Positions 823 to 45,218 of a stretch of 64,000 bases of DNA are shown here, piece by piece. Location: NCBI GenBank assembly GCA_964437555.1, contig CAYTHI010000001.1, positions 35,149 to 99,148 on the forward strand. Direction: 5' to 3'. How positions within the stretch are numbered: the first letter of the stretch is position 1; every line of letters starts with the position of its first letter. The notes under the pieces are model-generated. The model saw only the letters and a list, made by a program, of their open reading frames with translations, ran no database searches and was not told the origin of the DNA. The translations under genes were made by a program, and so were the position numbers. The DNA is from Candidatus Woesearchaeota archaeon (GTDB lineage: Archaea > Nanobdellota > Nanobdellia > Pacearchaeales > GW2011-AR1).

Positions 823-3800
823 ATGATTGATAATCCAATCCAAAAAATAACTGGCCCATGCGTAATCCTCGCAGGCGCAGGAACAGGCAAAACATACACA
901 ATTGTAGAGAAAATAAAATATTTCATTGAAAACAAAACTTACAAGCCAGAAAGGATTGTCTGCATAACTTTCTCAAACGAAGCAGCTAATAACCTTATAT
1001 TAAGAACAGATAAAACCTTGGAGAATGAAGAAAAAAATAAGCCGATAATAAGGACATTTCATGGCTTTTCAGCAGACCTTTTAAGAATATACGGAGATAA
1101 AATAGGAATAAGCAAAGAATTCAAGATTCTTGATACAGACCAGGCAAAAGTTATCCTTCACAGAAATCTAAAAATAAATCCTGTTAATTGCCATAAATAC
1201 ATAAGCACAATAGGAACTGCAAAAGATTTAGGAATAAAACTGGAGGAATTTGAGCAATTCCTAAATGCAAAACTATTAACATATGAAAACATGGACATGG
1301 AAAAGAAACTGGAAAATATGAATTTTGAATTGCAAACATTGCATTTAAGCAAAAACAAAACAGACAAAAAAATTCTCGTCAATGAAATAAAAAAGCTAAG
1401 AAGAATAATTGAGCTAAGAAAATTCGTAAATGCATGGAGAGCTTATGAAAAGCTGAAAAGCAAAGGAAATTACCAGGACTATTCAGACTTAAACAAAAAT
1501 GCTCTCTGTTTGCTGGAAAAAAACCCAGAAATATCGAATGATTTTGATTATGTAATTGTAGACGAGTTTCAAGATACAAATAAGCTTCAGCTAGACTTCC
1601 TGATAAAGCTGGCATCTCATAATAATATAACAGTTGTGGGAGACATGAATCAGAGTATTTACAGATTTAGAGGAGCGTACAAGGAAAATCTCAATCTTTT
1701 CAAACAAGCTTTTGATGTAAAACAAGGCGACATCTTTAACTTATCAAAGTCCCATCGCTCGCCAAATAAGGTATTAAAAACAGCCCATAAATTAATACTA
1801 AACAACTATCAAAATCCTGCTGAATGTTTTTTTGTTGACAACATTTACAATAGAGAAGGCAATAAAGTTGAAGTCTACGAATTAAGCAATGCAAGGGAAG
1901 AAGCAAGAAAAGTCATAGAAATTATCCGGGAAGAAACAAAAAATGGCTGCCCGATAGAAGAAATATGCGTCATGTTCAGAACCCATCAGCAGGGAAGAAT
2001 AATAAAAAGATTTCTGGAGCAGGAAAAAATACCCTATTACGCTGTCTCAAAGTCCTCATTACTAAAGCAAAAGTCAGTCAAAACAATTCATTCTTATCTA
2101 AGTATAATAAACAAGCTAAAAAATAAAGAAAAAGGCGGCGAGGATTCTTGGTGGGGTCTTATTTACAACAGCAATTTCTCAAAAGATGATTTGATAAAAA
2201 TCGGAAAAGAAATAAAGAATTTCTCAAAAAGACACAATGGTAATGAAAGAGAAAGTATAGGAAGTCAGAACAAAGAAAACCAAAGCAAATCAAATTCAGA
2301 CAATAGCTCTAGCTATCCTAATCATCCAATGCCTTACCTTTCAACATATCTTTTAGAAAGTCTTGAAAAACTCCAGCTTTCAGGAGAGGGAAATCTCGGA
2401 GTAAAAATAATAATTGAGAAAATAAAAAAAATGATGGAATTCTCGCAAAAAGGAATATCAGAGCTTGTTAAAGAAGCATGCAGAATATCCGGCTTCATAA
2501 ACGAGCAGAGAACAAAAGAAGAAAAAGAAATAATGCTCAATTTAAACAAATTTTATGAGATAGCTAAGATGCATGAGGATTTCTATGATTCCGACTTATC
2601 CAATTTCCTTTATTATTTAGAAACGTTAGAAACTTTAGAGATAGAGATAGAAGCGTCAAGAATTGAGGAGCCAGGCGTAAGACTAATGACTTCTCACGCC
2701 ACAAAAGGCCTTGAATACAATAAAGTTATAATAACTAATCTGGCACATGGAAGATTTCCTATTGAAAAATATGCTAGCACTAATTTAATACCAACAGAAT
2801 TATTGCCTGAAGTAAAAAATGAAATCGCGGGATTAGACGATGAGCAAAAAGACAATTTTATTCTTTATTATGAAAAATACAATCAGCTTTTAGAAGAAAG
2901 GCGTCTTGCCTATGTTTCTTTCACGAGGGCAAAAGAAAATCTTTTTTTGACATATGCCCGAGAATATGCAGGGAAAAAACTACTGCCTTCCCAATTTCTC
3001 AATGAAATATCTTACAAAAATAATCCTGACATTGCCTTCATTATAGATTTAGAAACAAAATATTCAGAGCCCAAAGCTGAAATAAAGCCGGCATACGGCT
3101 TGCATCAGTTTTTAGATGCAAAAACTCTTGAAACAATCGAATTAAATCAGCCTAATGAGTTAAATAAAGAAAAAGAAGAGCACAAAAGATTCTCCCCTTC
3201 CGCTTTATTGCTATTTGATGAATGCCAGAAGCAGTTTGAATACAAATATGTGTTTAACATGCCTGAAAGAAAAGCTGTTTCATGGGAAGCAATGAGATTA
3301 GGGAGTTTTGTTCATATCGTTCTTGAGCAAGGAGTTAAACAGGCATTCAAGAAAATAGATGACTTCCTTGCTCTTGCAAAAGAAATGTCAATGGATGAAG
3401 ACTGGGAAAGCATTAATCTAAATGAAGCTGAAACCCTCCTGCGAGTTTTTTTTGAAAGAAATAAAGGAAAATACAATGAGGAGAGTGAGACAGAACAATA
3501 TCTTAATCTAAATTTATCAGGAATGAATTTCATAGGCTTCGCAGACAGAATTGACTTTGATGAAGGCGGAAGTGCATCAATAATTGATTACAAAACAGGC
3601 AAAAGCACTATTGCTGTAAAAGACAGGAACTGGCAGCTCGGCTTTTATGCGCTTGCTGCAAAAGAAAAATACAATTCTGTTAAGTGTGTTGTCCTAGACA
3701 TGCTAAAGCAGGACAAGCCGATTGAATTTGATATTGATGAGCAGGGAAATGCGATATGCAAAAGCTCTGACAGGATAGACGGATTTAATATTTATGATGT

Positions 3801-3918
3801 CAGATCAGAACTTATTGAAACAGGAAAGGCAATCCTGCAAGCTTACAAGCAGGGATTTAAGCCCTGTTCCCCTGAAAAAAATTGCGATTTTTGCAATGAA
3901 TTTGTTTGGAAAATATAA
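823..3918 (+). CDS. UvrD/PcrA-family SF1 helicase fused to a C-terminal RecB/Cas4-like PD-(D/E)XK nuclease domain with a Cys cluster
   Basis: Walker A 'AGAGTGKTY' and helicase motif II 'VIVDEFQDTN' are present. The C-terminal region carries 'IIDYKTGK' and the Cys motifs 'FDECQ...' and 'CSPEKNCDFCNEF', typical of Fe-S RecB-family nucleases. There is a low-complexity Ser/Asn insert. Confidence 0.75.
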   Translation: MIDNPIQKITGPCVILAGAGTGKTYTIVEKIKYFIENKTYKPERIVCITFSNEAANNLILRTDKTLENEEKNKPIIRTFHGFSADLLRIYGDKIGISKEFKILDTDQAKVILHRNLKINPVNCHKYISTIGTAKDLGIKLEEFEQFLNAKLLTYENMDMEKKLENMNFELQTLHLSKNKTDKKILVNEIKKLRRIIELRKFVNAWRAYEKLKSKGNYQDYSDLNKNALCLLEKNPEISNDFDYVIVDEFQDTNKLQLDFLIKLASHNNITVVGDMNQSIYRFRGAYKENLNLFKQAFDVKQGDIFNLSKSHRSPNKVLKTAHKLILNNYQNPAECFFVDNIYNREGNKVEVYELSNAREEARKVIEIIREETKNGCPIEEICVMFRTHQQGRIIKRFLEQEKIPYYAVSKSSLLKQKSVKTIHSYLSIINKLKNKEKGGEDSWWGLIYNSNFSKDDLIKIGKEIKNFSKRHNGNERESIGSQNKENQSKSNSDNSSSYPNHPMPYLSTYLLESLEKLQLSGEGNLGVKIIIEKIKKMMEFSQKGISELVKEACRISGFINEQRTKEEKEIMLNLNKFYEIAKMHEDFYDSDLSNFLYYLETLETLEIEIEASRIEEPGVRLMTSHATKGLEYNKVIITNLAHGRFPIEKYASTNLIPTELLPEVKNEIAGLDDEQKDNFILYYEKYNQLLEERRLAYVSFTRAKENLFLTYAREYAGKKLLPSQFLNEISYKNNPDIAFIIDLETKYSEPKAEIKPAYGLHQFLDAKTLETIELNQPNELNKEKEEHKRFSPSALLLFDECQKQFEYKYVFNMPERKAVSWEAMRLGSFVHIVLEQGVKQAFKKIDDFLALAKEMSMDEDWESINLNEAETLLRVFFERNKGKYNEESETEQYLNLNLSGMNFIGFADRIDFDEGGSASIIDYKTGKSTIAVKDRNWQLGFYALAAKEKYNSVKCVVLDMLKQDKPIEFDIDEQGNAICKSSDRIDGFNIYDVRSELIETGKAILQAYKQGFKPCSPEKNCDFCNEFVWKI

Positions 3919-3988
3919 AGTGCAACCTATATAACTTTTTATAGTAAACAGACTAAAAATTTATTAACTCAATTGGCTATTCTATACC

Positions 3989-4399
3989 ATGTCTTATGTC
4001 GCTCAACTTTGTCAAGAACGAGGATATCGCCCAGCGCATGATCTTAACCACGTAATGCCAAAAGAAAGAATTAATCGTGTTGCTAAGGGTATTATGCTGC
4101 CCGATTTGAATTCATTCGCAAGAGTTTTTATGCGTGAAGATTCCTCGGGAGGCATACGCATTGTCTACGATAGCAATCATGGCTTGAAGTTTTTCTATTT
4201 TCAGGATGATGCCGCAATTGCCCAAGCCGATAAGCTTACTCGTCGGAGAACAGATATGAGTTTTGAAGAAGAATTTCCAACACCAAAAGAAAAAAGAAGT
4301 TGGGTTATAGGGTATTTAAATTTAGAAGTACTAGAACCAGTTCATAGGAATGAGCGGGCACTTAGAGAATTACTGGATGAAAAAGTGAGGGCCGCATAA
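3989..4399 (+). CDS. hypothetical protein; locally GC-richer (~45%) than neighbours
   Basis: 136-aa ORF rich in Arg/Ala/Gly, with atypical composition for this genome. A TATA-like 'cctatataac' lies upstream. Confidence 0.45.
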   Translation: MSYVAQLCQERGYRPAHDLNHVMPKERINRVAKGIMLPDLNSFARVFMREDSSGGIRIVYDSNHGLKFFYFQDDAAIAQADKLTRRRTDMSFEEEFPTPKEKRSWVIGYLNLEVLEPVHRNERALRELLDEKVRAA

Positions 4400-5215: not shown

Positions 5216-7744
5216 CGCGATTTTCGCCTCACCGCTAACGCCTTCAGGCACCGGCACTTTCACAGAAGCGGCAACTCTATCTCCTTCTTTCAAACGCACG
5301 ACGTGCACGCCCTGCGTGGCTCGTCCCATTACACGCAAATCTTTCATATTAACACGCAAAACCATTCCTTTTGTTGTTGTCACAATAACAGAATCTTTGT
5401 CATTAACTGAAAGAGAGGCAACAACTTTTCCTGTCTTGTCAGAAACACTCAAATTAATAACGCCCTTAGCTCCACGGGCTGTCTTCCTGTATTCTTCCAA
5501 TGATGAGCGCTTACCAAATCCTTTTTCAGTAATTGTTAATATTGTTGTTTTTCCGTCCTTTGGCATGCTTTCCATTGAAACAACTTCGTCATTCTTTCCT
5601 AATTCAGCTCCTTTAACTCCGTAGCTTGCTCGTCCCATAGACCTTACTTCATCTGTATTAAATCGTATTGCCTGTCCTTTAGCAGTGCATAACATTATTT
5701 CCTGTGCATCTTCAACTCTTCTGACATCAATTACAATATCGCTCCCATCAACAGGAAGATTAATTATTCTCACTCCTGTATTTCTTGGATTTGAAACATC
5801 TTTCAAAGGCAGTTTTTTTACAACTCCAAGTTTAGTCGCGAACATCAAATATCCTTCATTGAAATCTCGCAGAGCCATTACATTTGCTATGTTCTCATCT
5901 CTTAAGCTAAGAAGATTAACAAGTGCTTTTCCTTTGCTCTGCCTTTCTGAACTAGGAACATCATTTGCCTTAAGCCAGTACAATCTCCCTCGTGTTGTGA
6001 AAAACAATAAATAATCATGGGTTGAGCACGTGAGAATTTTCTTTACAAAGTCTTCTTCTTTCAAGTCAGCTCCTGTAACTCCAGAGCCCCCTCTTCTTTG
6101 CTCTTTGTAAGCAGAAACATCCATTCTCTTTATGTATCCTGTTTCTGTTAACAACACGACAACATCTTTCTTCTCAATCAAATCTTTTTCAGAAATCTCT
6201 GCAACTCTCTTCAAAACAGTTGTTCTTCTTTCATCCCCATACTGCCTCTTAATCTCCTGCACTTCTTTCTTTATTACAGAAAGTATTTCCTGCTCGCTTG
6301 ATAATATTTTTTTCAATTCGAGAATTGTATCTTTAAGCTCTTTTTCTTCATCTTTTAGCTTATCGCCTTCCAATCTTGTAAGCTGTGATAATCTCATCTC
6401 CAATATTGCTTTCACTTGCCTTGCCGTAAAATTAAACTTTTTAACTAAAGATTCAGAAGCTTCACTGGGACTGGCAGACTTCCTTATTATAGCAACAACA
6501 TTATCTATATCTTTTAATGCGATTAATAATCCGAGAACAATTTCTAATCTTTCTTCAGCTTTCTTAAGCTCAAACTGGCTTCTTTTTCTTACAACCCCTG
6601 CTCTATAACTGACATATTCTGAAACATACTCTTTCAAATTCAAAACTTTCGGCTTTCCCTTGACAAGCGCAAGAATATTAGCATCAAAAGAAGTCTGAAC
6701 ATTAGTTAACTGATACAATTTATTTAAAGTAAATTTGGGGTCAACTTCTTTCTTAAGCTCAATAACAACTCTTACCTGCCCCTTGGCAGACTCGTCTCTT
6801 AAATCAGAAACATCAGGCAGTTTTTTCTCTGTTGCTAATCTGGCTATGTCTTTAACAAGTTCTGCCTTATTAACCATATAAGGAACTTCTGTAATTATAA
6901 TGTAAGGCCTGCCTTTATGCTCTTCTATCTTTGTCCTTGCCCTCATTATTATTTTTCCCTTTCCTGTTCTGTACATGTCCTGTATGCCGCTGCCGCTTGC
7001 AAATCCGCCTGTCGGGAAATCAGGGCCAGTAACAATTTCCATAAGCTGCTCAATTGTGGTTTCCGGCTTGTTAATGTAAGAAATAATTGCTTCTGCTATT
7101 TCTGTTAAATTATGAGGAGGAATATTTGTTGCCATTCCAACTGCAATTCCTGTTGCTCCGTTCAATAATAGATTAGGAAGTTTAGCAGGCAGTGTCTCTG
7201 GCTCTTCAGTTGAATTATCAAAGTTAGGCCTCATCTTTACTGTTTCTTTTTCAATATCTGCCAATAACTCGCCGGCAATCTTGGCCAGCTTTACTTCTGT
7301 ATACCTCATTGCCGCAGCACTATCCGCATCAATTGAACCAAAATTTCCCTGTCCGTGAATCAATGGATACCTCAAAGAAAATTCCTGAGCCATACGAACA
7401 AGAGAATCATAAACAGCAACATCCCCATGAGGATGATATTTTCCTAAAACTTCTCCGACAACTGTTGCTGATTTTCTCGTCGGCTTGCTGCTATCAAGAC
7501 CTATATTATGCATCGCATACAAAATTCTTCTATGAACAGGCTTTAATCCGTCTTCAGCAGCAGGCAATGCTCTCTGGACAATAACAGACATGGCATAATC
7601 AATGTAAGATTTCTCCATCTCTTCAACAATTTCTTTTCCGCTAACGCCCAGCTCGTTTCCTATCTGATTCTTTGTCCTTCTTTCCTTTTCCTGGCTTTCA
7701 ATTTCTTCTTCTATCTTGTCTTCGTCCTGTGTTCTTGGCGTCAT
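5210..7744 (-). CDS. gyrA: DNA gyrase subunit A
   Basis: '[12 protein letters not shown]...[13 protein letters not shown]', '[10 protein letters not shown]' and 'YHPHGD' are GyrA hallmark motifs. Length is 844 aa. Confidence 0.92.
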
Positions 7745-8247: not shown

Positions 8248-10593
8248 TTACAAATCAACCTCTGCCTCATGGGCTCTTTCCGCAATGAACTGCCTGCGGG
8301 GCTCAACATCATCACCCATTAATCTTGAAAATACAGAATCTGCTTTTACAGCATCTTCAATAAGAACTTTGTTTAACAGGCGATTTTTAGGATTCATTGT
8401 TGTTTCCCACAATTGTTCAGCATTCATTTCTCCAAGTCCCTTAAATCTCTGGACATTAAGGCTTCCGCCCAGCTTATGAAGAAGCGTTTTCAATTCGTCA
8501 TCAGAATAAACATAATGGTCTTTTTTCTTTCTTACTTTATACAATGGAGGAACAGCAATGTAAATATTGCCATTTTCAATCAAAGGCCTCATAAATCTGA
8601 AGAAAAATGTCAGCAATAAGGTTCTGATATGCGCTCCGTCAACATCAGCATCGGTCATAATAATAACCTTGCTGTATCTTATCTTATCAATATCAAATTG
8701 CTCCCCTACTCCTGTTCCTATGGCTGTTATAAGATTTGCAATTTCTTCGCTTGAAAATACTTTTGTCAAATTTGCTTTTTCAACATTCAATATTTTTCCT
8801 TTTAATGGAAGAATTGCCTGATAATCCTTGTTACGCGCTTGTTTTGCGCTATTATGAACAAATACCCCAGATGCCAAAGCAAAATTATGAGTATTGGGAA
8901 CTTCTATGTCATAAACAGCTATCTTTTTATTGAGATTGGTTTTACTTATAATTTTATGATTTCTCATAGGAACAATTGCAATTGTTTTTTCATAGAGGGG
9001 CATTAAAGAATCCTCATTAGTCAAGTATTTAGCTTCTTTATAACTTCCACCCCTTAACATGAAATTGTGGTCAGGGGTGCAAACAATTTCTTCGCCATTA
9101 TCCAAAATTATCTTAATTACTTCCGCACTTTTCTTGGTAATCCTCGGATTTTCTATTCTTTCTATGCCTATGCTTCCATCTTCTTTGATAGTGTAACAAA
9201 AGTTCTGCTTGCCCTGTTTACCTTCTTCTATTAATTCCTCAAAACTAAGATTTCTTCCGTCTGCAAGAGCGACTTTAGTATCGCCTGAAAAACATCCTCC
9301 GGCTGAATCGCCTTCAACAAGATATACTTCTGTTTCCTCGGTCTTATTGCTTGAGCAGTCAGCAAGCTTTCCAGGCAACCCCCCGACAGAAAATGCGTTT
9401 TTTCTTCTTACCAATTCTTTTGCTTTCTTAGCAGCATTTCTTGCCTGCTGCGCTTCCAACGCTTTTGCAACAATTCTTTTCGCAACATTAGGATTTTCTT
9501 CAAAAAATTCAGACATAGAAGACATAGAAGTGCTTTCAACAATTCCTTTTATTTCTGAATTTCCTAATTTTGTTTTTGTCTGCCCTTCAAACTGCGGCTC
9601 AGGAACTTTAACTGAAATAATAGCTGTAAGGCCTTCTCGAACATCATCTCCTGTCAAACTGCCATCCTTCTCTGACTTAAGCATCTTATTCTTTCTTGCA
9701 TAGTCATTTATCGCCCTTGTTAATGCTGCCTTAAAGCCGACAACATGAGTTCCGCCTTCAACAGTATTTATTGTGTTTACAAAACTCAAAACATTTTCCT
9801 GATAACCTGAATTATACTGGACAGCGCACTCAACAGTCACTCCGCTGTCAACTTTGTAATAATAAACCGGCTTTGCATGAATAGCATCTTTGGATTCATT
9901 AACCCATTTAACAAATTCTATCAGTCCGCCTTCATAATGGAAAGTTTCCTTCTTTCCAGAAATTTCATCATTAACAATTATTTTCAATCCTTTGTTAAGA
10001 AAGGCTATTTCTCTAAAACGAGTTTCCAAAACAGAATAATCAAATTTTGTTGTTGAGAATATCTCATCATCAGGCGTGAAAGTTACAATTGTTCCTGTTT
10101 CTTTTTTGTCGCACTCTCCTATAACCTTTACATCGTATAAGGGCTTTCCTATCTTGTATTCCTGCTGGTAGATTTTTCCGTCTCTTTTTACAACAACTTT
10201 CATATGTTTGGACAAAGCAGCAACAACACTTATTCCTACACCATGCAATCCGCCTGAAACAGCATAGCTTCCCTTGTCAAACTTGCCTCCAGCGTGCAAT
10301 TTAGTAACAACAATCTCCAAAGCCGGCTTTTTATACACAGGATGCACGTCAACAGGGATTCCTCTCCCGTTATCTTCAACAGTCACACTCCCATCCTTAT
10401 TTAGAGCGACTTTTATTGTGTCGCACTGCCCTGCCAATGCTTCGTCAACAGAGTTATCAACAACTTCCCATACCAAATGATGGAGCCCCTGCTTGCTCGT
10501 GCTGCCTATATACATAGCCGGTCTCTTCCGGACTGCTTCAAGGCCTTCCAAAACCTTGATATTTTCTGCTGAATAGTTTTTTTGATCTGTCAT
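8248..10593 (-). CDS. gyrB: DNA gyrase subunit B, interrupted by a mini-intein
   Basis: GHKL ATPase motifs ('VVDNSVDEA', 'DNGRGIP', 'GLHGVG'). The Toprim motif 'LVEGDSAGG' is separated from '[26 protein letters not shown]' by a 148-aa insertion. Confidence 0.9.
8851..9294 (-). other. mini-intein (no homing-endonuclease domain) inserted in the GyrB Toprim motif (GDSAGG^S)
   Basis: N-terminal block A '[13 protein letters not shown]', block B 'TPDHNF', and a C-terminal '...[15 protein letters not shown]' followed by extein +1 Ser. Removing it restores the canonical GyrB 'EGDSAGGSAKQ' sequence. Confidence 0.8.
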
Positions 10594-10703: not shown

Positions 10704-10988
10704 TTACTTTTGAATTTTTGCCGCTTTTTTCACAGCTTTCGGCTTTTCCACATCAGATTTTTCCGCCTGGCTTGCTTTTTCTCTCGCCAAATCAGCTTTC
10801 ACAATGCCTCTCGCTCTTGCCAAATGGAAAGCTTCTGTCCATTTCAGCTTTCTTCTGTCTCTTCCCAGCTTCAAATGGTTTTTTCTGCACTTGCTTGAGC
10901 AGTAATAAACAACAATCCCGTCATTCTTAATAAGAAAAACTCCCTTATAATCTGCTTGTTCCTTTCCGCAAAAGATACACTTTGCCAT
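10704..10988 (-). CDS. rpl24e: 50S ribosomal protein L24e
   Basis: 'CIFCGKE...FLIKNDG...YCSSKCRKN' L24e zinc-ribbon signature. Confidence 0.85.
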   Translation of the reverse strand: MAKCIFCGKEQADYKGVFLIKNDGIVVYYCSSKCRKNHLKLGRDRRKLKWTEAFHLARARGIVKADLAREKASQAEKSDVEKPKAVKKAAKIQK

Positions 10989-10989
10989 T

Positions 10990-11298
10990 TTATGCTGCCC
11001 CTCTTATAACAAAATCTTTCCTTGCATCAGCTCTGAAATAAAGTGCCCTGCCGTTTAATTTATGAGGCAAATCCATTCTCTCTACATAAACTCCTTTCCT
11101 CTTTAAAGAATCAATCATATTTTTAATACTGCTAGCATATCCAAAGGCATAGCCTTCAACAGTTCCTAAAACCTCTCTAAAAAAAACTACTGCCCCATTT
11201 AGTTTACCTACATGAAAATCTTCTAGGTCTTCTCCTTTATCTTTTATAAAATCAATAGCCGCATCAAGTGAAGAACAGCCTACCGGATTATTTGTCAT
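10990..11298 (-). CDS. hypothetical protein (102 aa) inserted between rps28e and rpl24e
   Basis: Clean ORF coupled to neighbours. No confident family assignment. Confidence 0.45.
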   Translation of the reverse strand: MTNNPVGCSSLDAAIDFIKDKGEDLEDFHVGKLNGAVVFFREVLGTVEGYAFGYASSIKNMIDSLKRKGVYVERMDLPHKLNGRALYFRADARKDFVIRGAA

Positions 11299-11299
11299 T

Positions 11300-11605
11300 T
11301 TAAACCTGCACCCCTTTTGTTATTTTTCCTCTGACTCTTCTGGCTTCAATTTCAGTTTCTCTCAATTTAAGATAATCTCCGACTCTGACAGGCCCTTTAA
11401 CATTTCTTCTCATTGTCTTTCCTTCATTCCTTCCTTCCAGAACTTTTACTTTTACTTGAGTTACTTCTCCTCTTGCCCCTGTCCTTGCATAAATCTCCTC
11501 AACTAATGCCAAAACAGGCTCTCCAACAGCCAAAGTATTCTTTAATGTGGTTGTCTGCTCGCCAGACTGGCTTTCCTTAACTCTTGGTTTTTTTCCGCCG
11601 CCCAT
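11300..11605 (-). CDS. rps28e: 30S ribosomal protein S28e (with N-terminal extension)
   Basis: '[47 protein letters not shown]' matches the S28e core. Confidence 0.85.
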
Positions 11606-11611
11606 GTTAAA

Positions 11612-11998
11612 TTACTTCTTAAGGTATGCAATGTCTTTCTCAGCATCGCCTGCCTCAATCACAGCAACTGCGGATGTAGGAACTGGAATGCCCACTGCAA
11701 TACCTAATTTTTGTTTAGAATCAACTTCCTGACAAGGGATTCCTTTTTCCTTGCATATGACTGGTATGTGCGCAACAATCTCTTTTGGAGAAACATCAGA
11801 AGCATAAGCAACAAACTTTGCAACACCCCTCTCTATCGCTTTGGTAACCTCGTTAGAACCTTTGTCTATCTTCCCAGTTTTGCGAGCTTTTTCAATAATA
11901 CCATAAACATCCATATTAACCTCCGCCGACACTAAAGCGTCATTGGTTAAGCTTTGATGAAAACTATGCTTTATAAACTTTGCCTTGAGATTTTGCAA
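11612..11998 (-). CDS. rpl7ae: 50S ribosomal protein L7Ae
   Basis: 'GVAKFVAYASDVSPKEIVAHIPVICKEKGIPCQEV' L7Ae/L30e fold signature. Confidence 0.88.
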   Translation of the reverse strand: MQNLKAKFIKHSFHQSLTNDALVSAEVNMDVYGIIEKARKTGKIDKGSNEVTKAIERGVAKFVAYASDVSPKEIVAHIPVICKEKGIPCQEVDSKQKLGIAVGIPVPTSAVAVIEAGDAEKDIAYLKK

Positions 11999-12212
11999 AG
12001 TTTATGCCAGAAAATAAAAATTTTCTAAGTATCAAAAAAACTTTAAGTTGTTAGTTTTTGGATGTCCAAGAAGTTGAGGAGACTTCTTGACATAAATCTT
12101 GCTCTGACAAAAATATTAAATTCTAATTGCGTTTAATTATTCAGGCTAAGCGGAGTTTCAGCGACAATTTTAACAAAAGAATATTTATAACATTGAAATA
12201 CTTATTTTTGGC

Positions 12213-12509
12213 ATGAACATACTATTTGAGGTCGTAGACAAAACAGGCCGAAATCTACGAATGACCGATTACAACTGGCAACATATTGTCAGAAGACATC
12301 CCGAGATAGCTTCTCAAAAAGAAAAGATAATAGAAACTCTCGAAAAACCAGATAAAATTACATATTCTCCAGATGACGAAGAAACTAAGTATTATTACAA
12401 ATACTACAAAAATCTGCCTTCTCCATGGATATTTGTGAGGGTAATAGCAAAATACTTAAACGGCGATGGATTTATAATATCATCACATTTTGTGAGAGCA
12501 ATACAATGA
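12213..12509 (+). CDS. putative toxin of a DUF4258-like family (TA pair with next gene)
   Basis: 98-aa protein. Its stop overlaps the start of the DUF2283-like partner (ATGA). Confidence 0.45.
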   Translation: MNILFEVVDKTGRNLRMTDYNWQHIVRRHPEIASQKEKIIETLEKPDKITYSPDDEETKYYYKYYKNLPSPWIFVRVIAKYLNGDGFIISSHFVRAIQ

Positions 12510-12763
12510 AAAATCAAGTAACATTTGATTTATATTATGATGAATTAGGAGATTTCTTAGAGATATCCTTCGGCCTTCCTCCTGAAACCGAATACACAGA
12601 AGACTTGGAAGAAGGCATTTTTGTAACTAAAGATAGAAAAACAAATGAGGTTAAAAGCATAGGAATAATTAGTTTCAAAAAAAGAGCTAAAGAAGCAATT
12701 TTGAAGAGAGTTCTGGAACGGCTCGGGATGTCTATTCCATTAGAAATAAGTATTTCTAAATAA
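12506..12763 (+). CDS. DUF2283-family putative antitoxin
   Basis: 'VTFDLYYDELGDFLEISFG' resembles the DUF2283 'Y-D-x-E-x-D-x-L-Y-I' pattern. The start is taken at an internal Met coupled to the upstream gene. Confidence 0.5.
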   Translation: MKNQVTFDLYYDELGDFLEISFGLPPETEYTEDLEEGIFVTKDRKTNEVKSIGIISFKKRAKEAILKRVLERLGMSIPLEISISK

Positions 12764-13007
12764 TAACTTGAAAGTTAGGCCAAATATCGTCTTTTACGAA
12801 AAAAGCTATTTGGAAAATTGAGATATTTGCCTTTTATTGGATATTAAGTGACTTTAGCACGAGCTGGCTGACGAAAAGCCCTCGTGTCTTGCAATTTGTT
12901 TGAAAATCGCCTTTGAGCGTGATTGACGGACTATCTTTGTATTTGGGAGGACTCGTTTTATGTTCTTACTTGATAAAGGTGACAATAGAAAGATTTGAAT
13001 AACCCTT

Positions 13008-13382
13008 ATGTTTGTAGAAAATATGACAAACGATAGAAACTCAGACAGAAGTGCAGAGGAAAGATTACTTTATAGTATGTTTCCAGAAATGAAGCCTTCT
13101 AAAGAAAGAATCCCTTATACTCCAGAACAATTAGAAAAAGCGAGAAGAAAAATAGGGAAAGTTTTGAGTACCTTGACGTATAGAGAAAGAGAAGTTCTTA
13201 AATTGCGTTATGGTTTAGGTGATGGATATGCATACACTTTAGGAGAAGTAGGAAAGACTTTCAACATAACTAGAGAAAGAATTAGACAAGTAGAGGCTAA
13301 AGCAATAAGAAAATTACAAAGTCCAGAAAGACGAGCAATATTAGAAAGTTTACTCGATGAACCTCCAAGTACTTCTCAATAA
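13008..13382 (+). CDS. standalone bacterial-type sigma-70 region 4 (4.1/4.2 HTH) domain protein
   Basis: '[63 protein letters not shown]' is near-colinear with RpoD region 4.2 ('LTxREAKVLRMRFGI...[28 protein letters not shown]...'). Regions 2 and 3 are absent. Confidence 0.7.
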
Positions 13383-13759
13383 ATATTTATTAATTCTATA
13401 TTAATTCCTTGCGAAGCAAGACAATTTGTTTTTCTTCAGAAAAACCAAGCCCTCCCAATCCATCCCGTCAATTACGTTTAAACATCATTAAACCCAATCA
13501 ACAGGGCTATTTATCCGTCCGTTTAAGCGTAGCGAAAAGGCGTATTTTCAAATTTATCGAAGATAAACCTCTAATTTAGAAATAAAAATAAGAGGCAAAT
13601 TGCAAGTTCATTTAATACTTCTTAACCGCCCTTTTCACATCGAAAAGGAGGGTAAAGCGTAGGGAACCTTGGTGCCCTCGCGCGCGTTCGGCGCTTCGCG
13701 CCTCACAAATAAAAACCCGCAACAAATTTCTTGGGCTATTTAAATAAGACCCAAAAAAA

Positions 13760-14125
13760 TTATTTGACAAATTCAACACCTTCAGTATCTGAAAATTCCT
13801 TGTCTCCCGTCAAAAACTTTATCCCAAGCTTCTTTGACATTATATACCCAATGCAATCTGTAATTGAAACTCCTCTGTTCTTCCATTTTAATCTGAAAAG
13901 CATCGCTTCTTCTATCCATTCCGGCTTGACAGAATTAATATAATTAGAATATTTCCTTAAATTTTCCTTAGCCGATTTATCCTTATCCCTATAGAGACAA
14001 TAGCATAATTCAGCAAAAATAAAATTATTGATTATTATCTCTGAATCCAGATATTTCTCATACTCTTTATTGCCTCCGATAATCTCAATTATCGCATAAG
14101 TATCAAAAAGATATTTAGAGGTCAT
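13760..14125 (-). CDS. vapC: PIN-domain toxin VapC
   Basis: PIN acidic residues are in place ('LFDTYAI', 'FAEL', 'ITDCIGY', 'LTGDKEF'). Overlaps the upstream antitoxin gene by 11 nt. Confidence 0.75.
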   Translation of the reverse strand: MTSKYLFDTYAIIEIIGGNKEYEKYLDSEIIINNFIFAELCYCLYRDKDKSAKENLRKYSNYINSVKPEWIEEAMLFRLKWKNRGVSITDCIGYIMSKKLGIKFLTGDKEFSDTEGVEFVK

Positions 14126-14336
14126 AAAGTTCCTTGTCAGATTCTTTCATTAGTTTTTTTGCAGATTTAGAGAATTTGTGGGAGCCAAAAGTCTCGCGGA
14201 GCACATTTCCTTTCTTAACAAGAATTGCATCTATCTCTTCGCCTTCTTTCATTCCCTTATCTCTCAAAACTTCATGGGGAATAATTATTCCGTAAGAATT
14301 TCCCCATTTCCTTATCTTTGTCGTAAGTTCTGTCAT
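14115..14336 (-). CDS. vapB: AbrB/SpoVT-MazE-type antitoxin (VapB-like)
   Basis: 'KIRKWGNSYGIIIPHEVL' swapped-hairpin AbrB motif. Confidence 0.7.
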   Translation of the reverse strand: MTELTTKIRKWGNSYGIIIPHEVLRDKGMKEGEEIDAILVKKGNVLRETFGSHKFSKSAKKLMKESDKELYDL

Positions 14337-14361
14337 GTATATACCGTATATACGAAGCTAT

Positions 14362-14598
14362 TTAAAACTTTCTCTTATTTGCTTTCAAAAGACCAAGCTT
14401 CCTTAAATAATCCCGCGCTTTCTCATTAAAATCCCCGCCGTCTCCGAACTTCTTTCTGAAAATCTGCCTGCTCGCAATAATCTGGCTGTCAATCAGCATC
14501 TTATGCTGCCTGAAAAATTTATTATTTTCTTTAAGAGAATTAGCATAAAATTCAACATAGTCGCTGTCATTAATCGGTTTTTTTATGCTTTTTTTCAT
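14362..14598 (-). CDS. small hypothetical protein (78 aa), overlaps the 3' end of the NTase gene
   Basis: Basic protein with 29-nt overlap; last gene of a four-gene minus-strand operon. Confidence 0.35.
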   Translation of the reverse strand: MKKSIKKPINDSDYVEFYANSLKENNKFFRQHKMLIDSQIIASRQIFRKKFGDGGDFNEKARDYLRKLGLLKANKRKF

Positions 14599-15190
14599 TT
14601 TTTACCTCACTAAATATAACCTCGCCGGATTGTTTAAATCTTTCCTCGCTCAAAATAGCTGAAAAGAAATTCCTTAAATGCCTCGCATCCTCCATATCTT
14701 TTCTGCCCGCGAGAACAATTTCTTTATATAAAATCTCAAATTCCAGCATAGGTATCTTAAATTCAAAATCGCCCACTCTGATTTTCTGAAAATGCTCAAA
14801 TTCATACTTCTTGGCTCTCTTGCTTTCATTAAATGGCACAAGTTCTATATTAGGAAAAAGCTCCTTATTTCTGGCAAATCTTAAGCTGGTCATCTGCTCT
14901 AAATAAGAATAGGCGTCATTAAAATCTTCTCCCTGATAACACCAAAATCCTGCCTTCTGCAAATCGCCGAATAAATCTCCAAATTTTTCTTTCTGTATTG
15001 AAGGAAATAAGATATCCACATCTTCAGTTGCTCTTGTTCTCCCTGTTGATATGCTGACGTATCCGCTTACAACAAGATAGTCGCTGTGCTTCTTTAAAAC
15101 TTCAAGAAAATCCTTCGCAAATAAATCGAGCTCGTTTAGGTCTCTTTCAATAATAATGACACCGTTAATTATTTTGTACCCTTTTTCCAT
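14570..15190 (-). CDS. nucleotidyltransferase-fold protein (pol-beta/MNT superfamily; possible AbiEii-like toxin)
   Basis: 'VVSGYVSISTGRTRATEDVDILF' matches the hG[GS]x9-13DxD NTase motif. Confidence 0.55.
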   Translation of the reverse strand: MEKGYKIINGVIIIERDLNELDLFAKDFLEVLKKHSDYLVVSGYVSISTGRTRATEDVDILFPSIQKEKFGDLFGDLQKAGFWCYQGEDFNDAYSYLEQMTSLRFARNKELFPNIELVPFNESKRAKKYEFEHFQKIRVGDFEFKIPMLEFEILYKEIVLAGRKDMEDARHLRNFFSAILSEERFKQSGEVIFSEVKNEKKHKKTD

Positions 15191-15271
15191 AAAATAATAT
15201 AATCAGGTAATATAAAAAGTTTTATCTCCATCCCGCATCAACGTCATCCGTTTTTTCCCTAAGAATTATAC

Positions 15272-15853
15272 CTATTTCAAAGCATTATTTACTTTCTTCT
15301 TAAATTTCTCCGGGTATCTTTTCAAATATTCTTTAAGCTTCTTTTTATCAATTTTTTCCCTGAAAGTATCAATAACTTCCCTGTCCAAAGGCTGCCTGAA
15401 ATAAATCATGTCAATAAATGTTTTTTCAACATCAGAATAAGGAAAATAGAAGTCCCCGTCTTTGTAGTATTCAAAACCAAAAATATATTTTTTGTCTATT
15501 CTCCTAATAAACACGTTCCTATCAAAAATCTTCCTTATTCCTTTTCTCAGATTTCTCGTTGTAACAACAATAGGGTTTGTTTCCTGCTCCCATAAATTAT
15601 GAAAGCTCATTGCATTTTGCAAACCCAGATAAGAAGGCTTAAAACAAAAAACAATCAAAGAAGGATCGTCATAAATGCTATAAAAACCCTTAGTTATTTT
15701 TCTAATTTCGCCTTTCTTCAGTAAATTATTAATAAGCAAGTAAATGTAATCTTTATTCTTTTTTTTAATAAATTTCTTTAACGATTGAATATCAACAACA
15801 GGGCTTTTTTTAAAAAATCTCCTGATATCATTAATATACTTTATTTTACCCAT
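15272..15853 (-). CDS. AbiEi-like type IV TA antitoxin / transcriptional regulator
   Basis: N-terminal wHTH 'LLKKGEIRKITKGFYSI' and C-terminal 'SYLGLQNAMSFHNL...NPIVVTT' resemble the AbiEi/COG5340 architecture. Confidence 0.55.
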   Translation of the reverse strand: MGKIKYINDIRRFFKKSPVVDIQSLKKFIKKKNKDYIYLLINNLLKKGEIRKITKGFYSIYDDPSLIVFCFKPSYLGLQNAMSFHNLWEQETNPIVVTTRNLRKGIRKIFDRNVFIRRIDKKYIFGFEYYKDGDFYFPYSDVEKTFIDMIYFRQPLDREVIDTFREKIDKKKLKEYLKRYPEKFKKKVNNALK

Positions 15854-16491
15854 CTTTTTATCCCCATTAAAAGCTCATTTGAGTTAGGAACAGCTCCAAT
15901 AATAATTATGCTTGATAAATTTGCTTCGTCTTTTGGCTTTTCATAATTTCTGATTAATTTATTTAAAGAAGCTTCAACTAATTTTCTGTTTTCCACATAG
16001 TTAAGCAAAAAATAAATATCATATAAATCTCTTATCTTTTTCCTTTTAAGATATGTTTCAACTTTTTCTAATACCAAGTCTTCTGGGCTTAAAGTATACA
16101 CGTTAATAAAAAAGCTTTCAGAAGTTTCATATTTTTTTGAGAAAGGTTTTTTGCTTTGAAAAGTTGCCTCAAATTTTGTTGCAATATTGTTAAAGTCTAA
16201 TTCAGAATAAATTGAATTTTCCTTTATTCTTTTTTTTATTATTTTAAATCCTTTTGCTTCCAGTGACTTAAAAAATTCTTCAATTTTATTCAAATCTCTG
16301 TTTATATAAACGTCAACATCTTCTGAAAACCTGTTTCCATTATAGCACCTCCATATGCCGGTTCCGCCGTGAATTATAGCATTAGGAAAGAACTTATAGA
16401 GTTCTCCGACAATTATATCCTGGGCATAAGCTATTTCTCTCTCTGATTTCTTTTTCAATTTTAAACTTAGAGGGATATTAACCATTTTCAA
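15841..16491 (-). CDS. AbiEii/DUF1814-like nucleotidyltransferase toxin
   Basis: 'IIHGGTGIWRCYNGNRFSEDVDVYI' matches the GGT...R.SeDiD NTase motif. Overlaps the AbiEi start by 13 nt. Confidence 0.6.
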   Translation of the reverse strand: MKMVNIPLSLKLKKKSEREIAYAQDIIVGELYKFFPNAIIHGGTGIWRCYNGNRFSEDVDVYINRDLNKIEEFFKSLEAKGFKIIKKRIKENSIYSELDFNNIATKFEATFQSKKPFSKKYETSESFFINVYTLSPEDLVLEKVETYLKRKKIRDLYDIYFLLNYVENRKLVEASLNKLIRNYEKPKDEANLSSIIIIGAVPNSNELLMGIKRWVK

Positions 16492-16571
16492 TAATCTACC
16501 AAAGTTATATATATCTATAAGTTGGGTAACTTATAAATCTTTCGCCCTAAGAGGATTAAGGACATTAAATC

Positions 16572-17558
16572 TCATCTCCAAGTCACAAGAACGTCATCCG
16601 TCCTCTCTCTCGGCTTAATATCCACTTTATATGCCTTCATCTTAATCCCCGCATTATACATTATCTCGCCAGTAAATGCAATCATTGCTGCATTATCCAA
16701 AAGGAATTCTTTAGCAGGACAAAAGCACTTTGCTCCTCTTTCCTCGCACATTATCCTGCACATTTCCTGCAATCTTGCGTTGCAAGCAACCCCTCCGCCT
16801 AAAACCAATTCGCACTTTCCTGTGTGCGCCAATGCCCGTTCAGCAGCTTCAACAAGCATTGCAAAAGCTGTTTCCTGAATTGAAAAAGACAAATCCTCAA
16901 TCCTTTTGCCTTTATCATACAATTGCTTTGTCTTTGTAAGCATGCCTGAAAAACTTACGTCCATGCCTTTTATTGAATACGGCAGTTCAATATAACGATT
17001 AGATTGCTTTGCTTTCTGTTCAATAACAAGCCCGCCTGGAAAAGGAATTCCGCAATGCCTTGCAAAAGTATCAATAAAATTTCCTATTCCTAAATCCAAG
17101 GTTTCTCCGAAAACCCGGTATTTGCCTGCGGCAAAAGCAATTATCTGCGTGTTTGCGCCGGAAGCATAAAGCAAAACAGGATCTTTGGCGCCCTCGTGTT
17201 GTCCGATTTCTAAATGCGCAATGCAGTGATTAACAGGTATTAGCGGAATCTTTAATTCTTCTGCTTTCTTCTTCGCAAATCTTAATCCTTCCAATAAACA
17301 TGGAGCTAATCCGGGCGCATTTGAAATTGCAATTGCATCAATATCTTTCTCGCTAACTTCTGCCTTTTCTAATGCTTCTTCATAGATAATTTCTGCGACA
17401 TCGCGATGATGCTTAGCAGAATCCATTGGGATAATTCCTCCCTTCAAAGGTTTATACATATCCCTTACATTTGCAAGAATCTTTCCCTTATTCACAATTC
17501 CAACTCCGAATGTGTGAGCAGTGCATTCTATGCCGAGTATCATTAAATAAAAAGACAA
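16572..17558 (-). CDS. kae1: tRNA N6-adenosine threonylcarbamoyltransferase Kae1
   Basis: 'ILGIECTAHTFGVGIV', 'HCIAHLE' and 'GGGVACNARL' are Kae1/TsaD motifs. Confidence 0.9.
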   Translation of the reverse strand: MSFYLMILGIECTAHTFGVGIVNKGKILANVRDMYKPLKGGIIPMDSAKHHRDVAEIIYEEALEKAEVSEKDIDAIAISNAPGLAPCLLEGLRFAKKKAEELKIPLIPVNHCIAHLEIGQHEGAKDPVLLYASGANTQIIAFAAGKYRVFGETLDLGIGNFIDTFARHCGIPFPGGLVIEQKAKQSNRYIELPYSIKGMDVSFSGMLTKTKQLYDKGKRIEDLSFSIQETAFAMLVEAAERALAHTGKCELVLGGGVACNARLQEMCRIMCEERGAKCFCPAKEFLLDNAAMIAFTGEIMYNAGIKMKAYKVDIKPRERTDDVLVTWR

Positions 17559-36255: not shown

Positions 36256-36573
36256 TCAATGTAGCCAATTAATCGCGTGAACTTCTTCACGTCGGGAATC
36301 TCGCCCGCACAAAGCAAATTAATTGCTCACTGGAACTTCTCGCAAGTCGCTCCTGAATTTTATGGCTTAAAATAAATTTCAACAATGCCCTGATTAACTG
36401 GCGTGTAGTCCATCCGGTTTTCTTCTTGTCTTCAGTTGCTCATGCTGAAATCCAGAGAAAGAAAACTTTCTGGGCGAAAAACAGAAGAAAGCTTGCTTTA
36501 AATTTTTTGCGGCGCGCAGTGCGCACATCATCACAAGAAAAAAATCAAACAAAAGCGAGCAAAACAGATTTAC

Positions 36574-45063: not shown

Positions 45064-45218
45064 GAGCCCATAGCTCAGCCCGGTTAGAGCACTGCTCTTA
45101 TAAGAGTGCGTCTCGCCAGAGACGTATCATTCGGCCTCTTAGGAGGTTGATGTTCAAGGAACCTAGGTTCCTTAACTAGGAAAGGCAGGGGTCCCAGGTT
45201 CAAATCCTGGTGGGCTCA
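45064..45218 (+). tRNA. tRNA-Ile (anticodon UAU) with ~80-nt intron at canonical 37/38 position
   Basis: Manual cloverleaf: acceptor GAGCCCA/TGGGCTC, D-arm GCTC...GAGC, anticodon stem CTGCT/GGCAG (one G-U pair), loop CTTATA^[intron 45103..45182]A, T-arm CCAGG-TTCAAAT-CCTGG, discriminator A. Confidence 0.6.

Follow-up and report, generated by a model that had tools for sequence, protein, structure and literature searches.

Putative toxin–antitoxin modules, copies of the kae1 3′ end and conserved noncoding elements between kae1 and L7Ae in a DPANN archaeon

Gene content of the kae1–L7Ae interval

In a 64,000-nt stretch of DNA from a Pacearchaeota/Woesearchaeota-type DPANN archaeon (hereafter the window; GC content of the source genome about 0.36), we analysed the 4.57-kb interval between kae1 and L7Ae (positions 11999–16571), where putative toxin–antitoxin (TA) modules, a displaced copy of the kae1 3′ end and conserved noncoding elements lie side by side. 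The upstream anchor kae1 (16572–17558, minus strand; Pfam TsaD, E = 1e-74) encodes a tRNA t6A synthesis protein whose closest match in genome and metagenome collections reaches at most 83–84% identity. The downstream anchor L7Ae (11612–11998, minus strand; Logan gene call PF01248) is the first gene of an L7Ae–S28e–orf102–L24e block spanning 10704–11998. A preliminary description of this DNA had placed the interval between these flanks and had listed nine open reading frames (ORFs); the flanks were confirmed, and all nine ORFs were found at the positions and with the start/stop overlaps it gave. The local assembly is independently reproduced by short Logan contigs of run SRR12113430 (L081 and L082; L numbers denote fetched related loci). 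Look-ups of the exact Kae1 and sigma-like protein sequences gave no entry; NCBI records the sigma-like and AbiEi proteins on a 102,494-bp contig.

Next to kae1 lie two overlapping minus-strand genes. The first (15841–16491) encodes an AbiEii-type nucleotidyltransferase, the putative toxin (DUF1814 domain; Pfam PF08843, E = 4.5e-19, 69.8 bits against a cut-off of 22.5; PADLOC AbiEii, E = 3.7e-19), whose translation shows the motifs GG-T...SEDVDV and K-IRDLYD. The second (15272–15853), overlapping the first by 13 nt, encodes an AbiEi-type protein, the putative antitoxin or regulator, with a PADLOC AbiEi match over residues 16–180 (E = 4.8e-20), a sub-threshold Pfam AbiEi_4 match (E = 8e-3) and an NCBIfam TAA_AbiEi match at E = 7e-3. 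Upstream of the pair, a TATA-like TTTATAA (16531–16537) and the palindrome AACTTATAGATATATATAACTT (16502–16523) make up a region on the minus strand (16502–16537) that may act as promoter and operator. Both features recur ahead of AbiEii in five genomes, which represent four different neighbourhoods, and the spacer 16492–16571 matches L126, L127 and L119–L124.

Beyond the AbiE pair, a 206-residue protein (14570–15190, minus strand) is predicted from its structure model and motifs to be a MenT/AbiEii-like nucleotidyltransferase, although no Pfam, NCBIfam or PADLOC family matched it. The closest Foldseek match of its AlphaFold2 model (pLDDT 91.9) is the MenT1 toxin 8an4 (E = 1e-5, TM-score about 0.5), followed by other AbiEii/AbiGii-type nucleotidyltransferases and then by LnuA and ANT(2''). 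The 555 homologues share the invariant motifs G..GR.R.TED.D and K-D..D..H; the top 120 stand at 59–65% identity, with one at 80%, and are mutually equidistant. Its constant partner, a basic 78-residue ORF (14362–14598, minus strand; 29-nt overlap), matched no Pfam or NCBIfam family, and a 70–78-residue ORF likewise follows the nucleotidyltransferase gene in L115 (72% identical to that of the window) and in L116–L118. Judged from these homologues, the two genes appear to form a widespread conserved DPANN module that was missed by the preliminary description, and the larger protein could be either a domesticated enzyme or a MenT-like toxin whose antitoxin is the small partner. That description had counted all four genes as one AbiE-like unit. 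The AbiEii–AbiEi pair within it holds, but a copy of the kae1 3′ end stands between this pair and the other two genes, which are therefore a separate second module.

The VapBC pair named in the preliminary description is present as claimed. A VapB-type antitoxin of AbrB/MazE fold (14115–14336, minus strand; Pfam MazE_antitoxin, E = 2.7e-6; NCBIfam doc_partner, E = 2e-10) overlaps by 11 nt a VapC-type PIN-domain toxin (13760–14125, minus strand; Pfam PIN, E = 6e-10), in whose translation the acidic residues D8, E39, D90 and D108 are found. Homologues at the same position in L091 are 72% (VapB) and 66% (VapC) identical.

On the L7Ae side, two plus-strand genes with a 4-nt ATGA start/stop overlap encode a 98-residue protein, i1 (12213–12509), and an 85-residue DUF2283-like putative antitoxin, i2 (12506–12763; Pfam DUF2283, PF10049, E = 4e-3). 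Window i1 itself gives sub-threshold PBECR3 and PBECR2 matches. A search of 1.84 billion representatives returned 484 for its family, in which D9, H24 and H29 are nearly invariant, and 56 members were scanned; because 45 of them match PBECR2 (best E = 1e-9; PBECR3, 17; DUF4258, 10, best E = 3e-5), i1 is putatively a nuclease-like toxin of the BECR (Barnase-EndoU-ColicinE5/D-RelE) fold. The two genes had been described as a DUF4258/DUF2283 pair. The overlap is as reported, but the DUF4258 label stands at superfamily level only: the Pfam search gave no DUF4258 (PF14076) match for window i1 at E ≤ 0.1. The DUF2283 match is sub-threshold, at 17.7 bits for i2 and 21.5 bits (E = 2.7e-4) for its L108 homologue against a cut-off of 23. 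Comparisons by hhalign of shallow three-sequence profiles with true DUF4258 and DUF2283 proteins were uninformative, the former giving a probability of 2.7%. A single-sequence structure model of i1 (pLDDT 52) was not used. The two genes recur as a pair in L096 and L108.

Downstream of this pair, a 124-residue stand-alone protein of bacterial-type sigma-70 region 4 is encoded on the plus strand (13008–13382; Pfam Sigma70_r4, E = 4.4e-17). Its NCBIfam matches, to the C-termini of MzaA (E = 4.7e-29, residues 11–119) and RpoD (E = 2.5e-27), span only the C-terminal 70–110 residues of the models at scores far below the cut-off. The protein consists of region 4 and a short N-terminal helix, and many of its homologues are short region-4-only proteins with the same helix; its relatives include P0027, from a candidate phyla radiation (CPR) bacterium and encoded between pemK and ftsZ, P0037, annotated as Parcubacteria, and fusions of an XRE-type helix-turn-helix (HTH) with region 4. 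In tblastx comparisons, which included a full-length sigma gene, no region 2 or 3 remnant was found in the DNA upstream. What had been called a sigma fragment is instead a full-length member of a short region-4-only family. In L108 the corresponding place, behind the i1–i2 pair and the noncoding element nc1 (described below), is taken by an XRE-HTH protein, and this suggests that the region-4 protein is an HTH regulator of this module. It probably acts as an ordinary DNA-binding regulator, because archaea are without the bacterial core RNA polymerase that it would otherwise bind.

Region-4 proteins were also seen in other settings. In each of the six contigs of a CPR bacterium that were listed, which come from different samples (L083–L088), a PemK toxin gene and ftsZ flank the gene of a 115-residue region-4-only protein, with a DUF4258/DUF2283 pair 2.4–2.8 kb downstream. 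Sigma-70 genes have been reported in DPANN, especially Woesearchaeota (Castelle et al. 2021, PMC8204110), and in agreement with that report L059, a 623-kb Nanoarchaeia contig, carries a full-length 277-residue sigma-70 gene (3206–4039) between Elp3-like and GTPase genes, as judged by eye from their translations. A literature search on MZA turned up nothing directly relevant beyond the cited work.

Gap variability, kae1-end copies and layered modules

Window proteins were mapped by tblastn onto 80 loci around Kae1 relatives, one genome per species. The gene order u122–u49–kae1–gap–L7Ae–S28e–L24e–gyrB is kept in 51 of these 80 related Pacearchaeota/Woesearchaeota genomes. Across the 51 syntenic loci the gap ranges from −9 to 8215 bp (median 1.07 kb); it is close to zero in L075, L079, L012 and L027 and reaches 8.2 kb in L023 and L047. 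The kae1–L7Ae junction is longer than 1 kb in 55% of genomes and longer than 3 kb in 20%, compared with 0–25% and 0–5% for five neighbouring junctions, and is the most variable among the six consecutive junctions. The 109 ORFs in the gaps of relatives are a heterogeneous cargo that includes sugar epimerases, NosD/beta-helix proteins, radical SAM enzymes, arylsulfotransferases, histidyl-tRNA synthetase, an AI-2E transporter, a DDE transposase, an AEP primase and restriction–modification methylases. By tblastn, the window's own island genes are absent from this gap in the 80 species representatives save for traces in L042 (a fragment) and L038 (a nucleotidyltransferase at 35% identity). The cargo of the relatives is mostly non-defence; the gap is therefore a general insertion site, which is TA-rich in the window genome and in L115. 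This synteny comparison, proposed in the preliminary description, bears out its claim of an accessory hot-spot with conserved flanks and unrelated cargo, and an identical gene order of typical composition throughout the lineage, as expected of a non-accessory region, was not found.

Within the island the AbiE pair is the compositional outlier (GC content 0.24–0.30; tetranucleotide z = 2.8). The k-mer deviation for which the preliminary description had suggested a plot is present in this pair but not in the left 2.5 kb of the island, which is typical (z 0.2–0.9); all deviation in the island falls within 14.5–16.5 kb. In a sliding comparison with L126, nucleotide identity is 64–78% in kae1 (one 100-nt window, 91%), rises to 86–94% across the cassette from 16517 to 15320, and falls to about 52% past the kae1 remnant. 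AbiEi has 889 homologues forming a continuum from 93% to 65% identity, and all source-named ones belong to Nano- or Pacearchaeota. Elsewhere the pair sits beside an ABC transporter (L119), an RsmB/F-type methyltransferase (L123/L124) or an aminoacyl-tRNA synthetase (L127), and the position of AbiEii as the first gene and the 13-nt overlap are constant across these neighbourhoods. The start of the adjacent methyltransferase gene in L123 is present on both sides of the cassette as a 21-nt direct repeat, whose two copies agree at 20 of 21 positions and lie 1422 nt apart. On composition and sequence identity, we take the AbiE pair to be a self-contained 1.3-kb low-GC mobile cassette with the signature of recent transfer. 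Just upstream of the pair in L119 (about 5985–6175, minus strand) there is a class II tRNA-like sequence with an intron of about 100 nt (5′ part GCGGGGATGCCGGAGTGG, 3′ part TTCGAATCCTGTTCCCCGCA), for which ARAGORN made no call.

The last ~50 nt of kae1 recur in degenerate, displaced form (15222–15272, minus strand) directly after the AbiEi stop, in the 81-nt spacer before the nucleotidyltransferase gene. This copy was identified by blastn and tblastx to the kae1 ends of relatives, by alignment and by nhmmer (E = 3.5e-4), and translates as ...ILREKTDDVDAGWR before its stop, compared with ...KPRERTDDVLVTWR at the true kae1 end. A hidden Markov model of the last 66 nt of kae1 recovers 83 of 83 true ends; it finds extra copies in the window, L081, L115 (three), L126, L013, L076 (two), L070 (two) and, weakly, L066. 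As a control, the kae1-end motif matched 203 times on the kae1-sense strand and 5 times on the opposite strand in 1.5 Mb of the loci. L115 has three two-gene cassettes (AbiE; nucleotidyltransferase and small ORF; MNT-HepT), each with a kae1-end copy behind it. In L013 a free-standing LAGLIDADG endonuclease gene (10966–11997, minus strand; Pfam E = 1e-8) lies directly after kae1 and before a copy at 12052–12116. This distal copy encodes the canonical C-terminus DIAPRERTDMVDVTWK whereas the end in use is divergent (TDQVIIKYK), as expected if incoming DNA had supplied a replacement end. Comparison of the sequences showed the remnants of the window and L126 to be more alike than either is to its own kae1 end. 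From this pattern we infer that the kae1 3′ end may be a preferred recombination point at which cargo accretes. Tandem copies of the kae1 end plus hairpin with a 76-nt period and no cargo were also observed, three of them in L076 (10949–11136); in L070 (9763–10040) the true end is followed by two further copies, one of which lies beside masked sequence.

Relatives hold different subsets of the modules. In L091, whose Kae1 is 84% identical, the order is kae1–VapB–VapC–element A–L7Ae, element A being a noncoding element of the interval described below, and no other island genes are present; VapBC and element A would therefore be the older residents. In L115, AbiEii (46%, C-terminal part) and AbiEi (65%) are followed by a kae1-end copy, by the nucleotidyltransferase (80%) and small ORF, and then by MNT-HepT instead of VapBC. 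In L126, kae1, AbiEii and AbiEi (93%) are followed by a kae1-end copy and by unrelated DNA. Read in this way, the interval appears to be a layered mosaic of modules of different ages and not the product of one integration, and only the AbiE pair seems to behave as a discrete mobile unit.

The preliminary description had instead considered a remnant integrated element. In that case one provirus, plasmid or integrative element would have entered between L7Ae and kae1 and decayed to the whole interval, its integrase and most other genes having been lost. Such an origin would suit the common role of TA modules in stabilising integrated elements, the deviant composition of the AbiE block and the likeness of the kae1-end repeat to an attL/attR pair. 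Yet Pfam, PADLOC and NCBIfam searches found no integrase family among the nine island ORFs, ARAGORN found no tRNA within the island, and the only repeats bracketing 12.0–16.6 kb were AT-rich chance matches, kae1-end copies bracketing the AbiE cassette alone. Compositional deviation confined to 14.5–16.5 kb and high identity to L126 confined to the 1.25-kb cassette also speak against it, as do the subsets held by relatives (VapBC alone in L091, AbiE alone after kae1 in L126, AbiE with nucleotidyltransferase and MNT-HepT in L115) and the element A pattern, whose four block 1 matches in viral contigs were all chance matches in GC-rich DNA. With several age layers in place of one, we consider the single-element origin very improbable.

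A different alternative dispenses with site preference: DPANN genomes would be shuffled everywhere, and the kae1-end copies would be by-products of tandem duplication or replication slippage. It draws on the u49–kae1 and L24e–gyrB junctions, which also exceed 1 kb in 23–25% of genomes, on the simple cargo-free 76-nt repeats of L076 and L070, and on the mostly ordinary metabolic or surface genes carried by relatives. We nevertheless regard it as unlikely. The kae1–L7Ae junction is clearly the most variable of the six; unrelated cargo (AbiE, MNT-HepT, LAGLIDADG) is enclosed by copies of the kae1 end in no fewer than three independent settings; a cassette about 90% identical occupies the same site in two lineages whose kae1 genes differ by about 30%; and in L013 the canonical C-terminus is in the distal copy, not in the end in use.

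A preferred entry point at the kae1 end is itself weakened by several observations. Gene order is generally fluid in DPANN genomes, so some of the gap variability may reflect flux of a general kind; the two other junctions named above are also wide. In the window the two copies of the kae1 end share only about 72% identity and a 12-nt identical core (ACGGATGACGTT), so a recent site-specific event is not demonstrated. No recombinase, transposase or homing endonuclease was found in the window island, and the insertion mechanism therefore stays a proposal. Contrary to stacking, no kae1-end copy follows the small ORF in the window, where the spacer is 25 nt, whereas L115 has one. A repeat search found no repeat flanking the AbiE pair in L127. 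The nucleotidyltransferase/small-ORF pair, conserved like a core gene at about 65% all round, may be neither mobile nor toxic.

Conserved noncoding elements

The ORF-free stretches are not debris; they carry conserved RNA-like elements common to related genomes, which the preliminary description had missed. The two hairpins quoted in the preliminary description were located at 13690–13702 (ggcgcttcgcgcc) and 13630–13648 (ccttttcacatcgaaaagg); the GC-richness that it had contrasted with the backbone is modest (0.41 at 13450–13749 versus about 0.36). Stretch 13383–13759 folds better than shuffled sequences on both strands (z about −3.6), and stretch 12764–13007 does not (z −1.35 and 0.0). The suggested Rfam search matched no family at the elements: at E ≤ 10, Rfam 15 (4227 families) gave nothing over 12757–12946 or 13470–13742 in a search of 11900–13900, and nothing at element A in 12 other loci; a gathering-score search of the whole window gave nothing at the noncoding elements. 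Comparison with the loci by tblastx and blastn revealed no coding remnant except the kae1 end, and a pseudogene reading of the stretches was rejected. A scan for bacterial promoters and terminators returned counts at chance level, with a consensus that is not applicable to archaea. A literature search on DPANN noncoding RNA families brought up nothing directly relevant beyond the cited work.

The element nc1 (12757–12946, plus strand; about 190 nt, five helices) lies directly 3′ of the i1–i2 pair. It was found by nhmmer in the window and 10 fetched loci (E 1e-51 to 3e-12). RNAalifold on five sequences gave 49 pairs, 20 of them with compensatory changes, and 90.8% of cells paired. None of 500 shuffles reached the observed values, slid controls paired at most 52%, and G-U pairs point to the plus strand. 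Despite its unremarkable folding energy, the strong covariation makes nc1 a well-supported candidate for a structured RNA. In L108, as in the window, its position is immediately 3′ of the BECR/DUF2283 pair; in L115 it follows a PemK pair just as closely on the 3′ side.

The segment nc2a (13470–13585, plus strand) contains a 12-bp helix (ATTACGTTTAAAC / GTTTAAGCGTAG) and matches L096 (69% over 186 nt) and L098 (73% over 104 nt) by blastn. Adjacent to it, element A (13587–13742, tentatively on the minus strand) carries both quoted hairpins and was recognised by pattern and nhmmer, where sequences scored either 84–118 bits or not at all. Its layout is GTGAGGCGCGAAGCGCCGAACGCGC, a variable hairpin, and AAAAGGGCG-TTAAG..ATTAA..GAA. 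One match to the pattern lies in the window (0 expected). Three kae1 loci (L004, L011 and L016) also have it, inside the same kae1–L7Ae gap and with unchanged orientation, as do 22 metagenome contigs. The 25-nt first block is invariant in all copies but L104, whose hairpin shows two compensatory pairs. At fixed points the copies carry insertions of variable hairpins whose lengths are not triplet multiples. Pairing is complete (100%) in the first hairpin and reaches only 78% of cells in a second. In other lineages the commonest neighbour of element A is an RsmB/NOP2-type RNA methyltransferase gene (10 loci). An RNA reading of these two elements has points against it: the nc2a helix has two or three compensatory pairs and its support is weak because there are only three sequences, and for element A covariation is thin, since the sequence barely varies, and the strand is tentative.

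Other identities of element A were considered and set aside. A small protein was rejected because its length differences are not multiples of three, and reading frames differ. ARAGORN, with introns allowed, made no tRNA or split tRNA call. For 5S rRNA, signal recognition particle RNA, RNase P RNA, K-turn, C/D and H/ACA RNAs there was no covariance-model support and, by eye, the architecture was wrong. Long-range helices proposed by RNAalifold on four sequences were not upheld on 24.

Read from the alignments, nc1, nc2a and element A all contain UUAAGCG. Its contexts are GATATTAAGYGAC in nc1 (about 12860), GTTTAAGCGTAGCGA in nc2a (about 13535) and GATTAAGCGAA in element A (about 13600).

RNA-gene-level conservation of element A and nc1, and the usual place of element A beside a methyltransferase gene, could also be read as signs that the interval is largely housekeeping, for example in RNA modification, with the TA labels reflecting fold similarity only. 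The nucleotidyltransferase family, about 65% identical all round in Nano-, Pace- and Woesearchaeota, and the 889 AbiEi homologues at 65–93%, whose source-named members are all of the same clade, point the same way. We find this highly doubtful: apart from the 35%-identical nucleotidyltransferase in L038, neither pair is near kae1 in other kae1 loci, and the neighbourhoods of both vary between genomes. Moreover, the AbiE cassette is far closer to L126 than kae1 is and differs in composition, and both AbiE proteins match curated AbiE models.

Some features outside the interval are recorded here. In the downstream block, the 102-residue ORF between S28e and L24e (10990–11298, minus strand) has no Pfam or NCBIfam match and was found by tblastn in 0 of the 80 related loci. 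The gyrB gene (8248–10593, minus strand) encodes a 781-residue product with an intein-like insert; most relatives are without it, because their tblastn match runs contiguously across the insert point, and a gap is present there in L013, L053, L054 and L076. Farther away, an Rfam RT-16 RNA (RF03019, 78 bits against a gathering score of 50; 36256–36460, minus strand), a motif associated with reverse transcriptases, adjoins a 220-residue ORF (36574–37236). At 45064–45218 (plus strand) the Rfam tRNA model matches over 155 nt, implying a long intron, with no ARAGORN call. The most extreme tetranucleotide deviation in the window (z up to 3.6 at 27.5–29.5 kb) falls in a single 1988-residue ORF (25659–31625, minus strand).

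Insertion model and relation to known systems

From the anatomy, synteny, repeats, transfer signature and RNA covariation observed, we consider it fairly probable that 11999–16571 is a variable insertion site between two conserved core blocks, built in layers with stacking of kae1 ends. VapBC and the noncoding elements A, nc2a and nc1 would be its older residents. Beside kae1, the MenT-like nucleotidyltransferase and small ORF would have come later, followed by the AbiEii–AbiEi cassette with its own promoter and palindromic operator, placed between the working kae1 end and the decaying copy. The L7Ae side carries the BECR-nuclease-like/DUF2283 pair, nc1 and the sigma region-4-only HTH protein. 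The insertion mechanism is, like toxin activity and any role of the RNAs, a proposal built on these observations: arriving DNA would recombine in or beside the kae1 3′ end, which would be restored at each arrival while the former end is pushed distally, and successive arrivals would stack with one kae1-end copy behind each. The event could be due to a trans-acting recombinase, to repair triggered by an endonuclease, or to illegitimate recombination with selection for an intact kae1.

PIN, BECR and nucleotidyltransferase toxin families belong to TA and abortive infection systems and target RNA or tRNA. By analogy, the four protein modules may be TA or abortive infection modules in which a PIN RNase, a BECR RNase and two nucleotidyltransferases are the toxins and act on RNA or tRNA. 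They are ordinary members or variants of known TA families, and it is the noncoding stretches that are least expected at this locus. A bolder version, which we offer only tentatively, would make the 3′ end of the essential gene kae1 a docking site for recombinase-less two-gene TA cassettes, an integron-like array on a protein-gene end that is possibly seeded or driven by free-standing homing endonucleases like that of L013, and would add up to three undescribed DPANN RNA families that share UUAAGCG, with nc1 recurrently 3′ of TA operons.

DPANN archaea have tiny genomes and are thought to be host-dependent, and how they gain and retain accessory genes is poorly known. The locus offers a concrete, repeatedly used gene-entry point at the kae1 end, with scars and a recent-transfer signature (about 90% versus about 70% identity); such evidence would help in finding the responsible enzyme or in showing recombination-driven homing in uncultured organisms. 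To our knowledge, Rfam holds no lineage-specific families for DPANN. Here nc1 would be a well-supported new structured RNA and element A is very highly conserved and RNA-like, and each could be either a divergent housekeeping RNA or a new TA-linked regulator. For annotation, a widespread DPANN family without a Pfam model can be assigned, from its predicted structure, as a MenT/AbiEii-like nucleotidyltransferase, and the former sigma fragment belongs to a region-4-only family shared with CPR bacteria.

Of the protein modules, VapBC is an ordinary type II member with an overlapping AbrB/MazE antitoxin and a PIN toxin with four acidic residues. The AbiE pair resembles the type IV AbiE systems of Lactococcus lactis and Streptococcus agalactiae in having two overlapping genes that match the AbiEii and AbiEi models, the AbiEi partner being of the kind with a winged HTH at the N-terminus and an antitoxin domain at the C-terminus. 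AbiEi-type antitoxins autoregulate negatively, and the conserved palindrome in the promoter region would fit such autoregulation. The canonical order, antitoxin abiEi first and toxin abiEii second, is reversed in the window, as it is in L119, L123, L126 and L127; the host is an archaeon, unlike those of the bacterial systems, and the pair here forms a self-contained 1.3-kb cassette flanked by copies of the end of the neighbouring gene. The 206-residue protein is modelled with the fold of MenT from MenAT1 of Mycobacterium tuberculosis (Foldseek 8an4/8an5, E = 1e-5, probability 1.0), keeps the G..GR..T.D.D and K.D..D motifs and is likewise paired with a small protein. In contrast to MenT, the TM-score is only about 0.5 at 14% identity, no AbiEii Pfam or PADLOC model matches, the small partner lies downstream and not upstream, and across DPANN the family shows the conservation of a core gene. 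The region-4 protein, encoded in a DPANN genome, shares a bacterial-type region 4 with DPANN sigma-70 genes and with its best NCBIfam match, MzaA of the MZA anti-phage system, but has 124 residues without region 2 (core binding, −10 recognition) and region 3 and groups with short region-4-only proteins.

Integrative elements can insert at the 3′ ends of tRNA or protein genes, supplying a new end themselves while the original one persists as a remnant, and in the fungus Allomyces a foreign atp6 C-terminus is linked to an endonuclease. The kae1 loci are like such elements in that a working end is followed by cargo and then by that end again in a displaced copy. The cargo of L013 is a LAGLIDADG gene, with the canonical C-terminus in the displaced copy, and the serial copies in L115 look like tandem accretion. 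They differ in that no integrase or endonuclease lies beside the cassettes in the window, L115 and L126, and in that the target is the protein gene kae1 and the cargo consists of 0.9–1.4-kb two-gene TA modules. Integron cassette arrays, which Ghaly and co-workers reportedly described in Archaea in 2022, provide a second comparison. No IntI was seen in the island or the fetched DNA (the rest of the genome was not searched), and the AbiE cassette of the window has its own putative promoter. The likeness to the integron arrays lies in small, promoter-poor or self-contained, TA-rich cassettes that follow one another at a single chromosomal site with a recurring separator, which at this locus is a copy of the kae1 3′ end in place of an attC hairpin.

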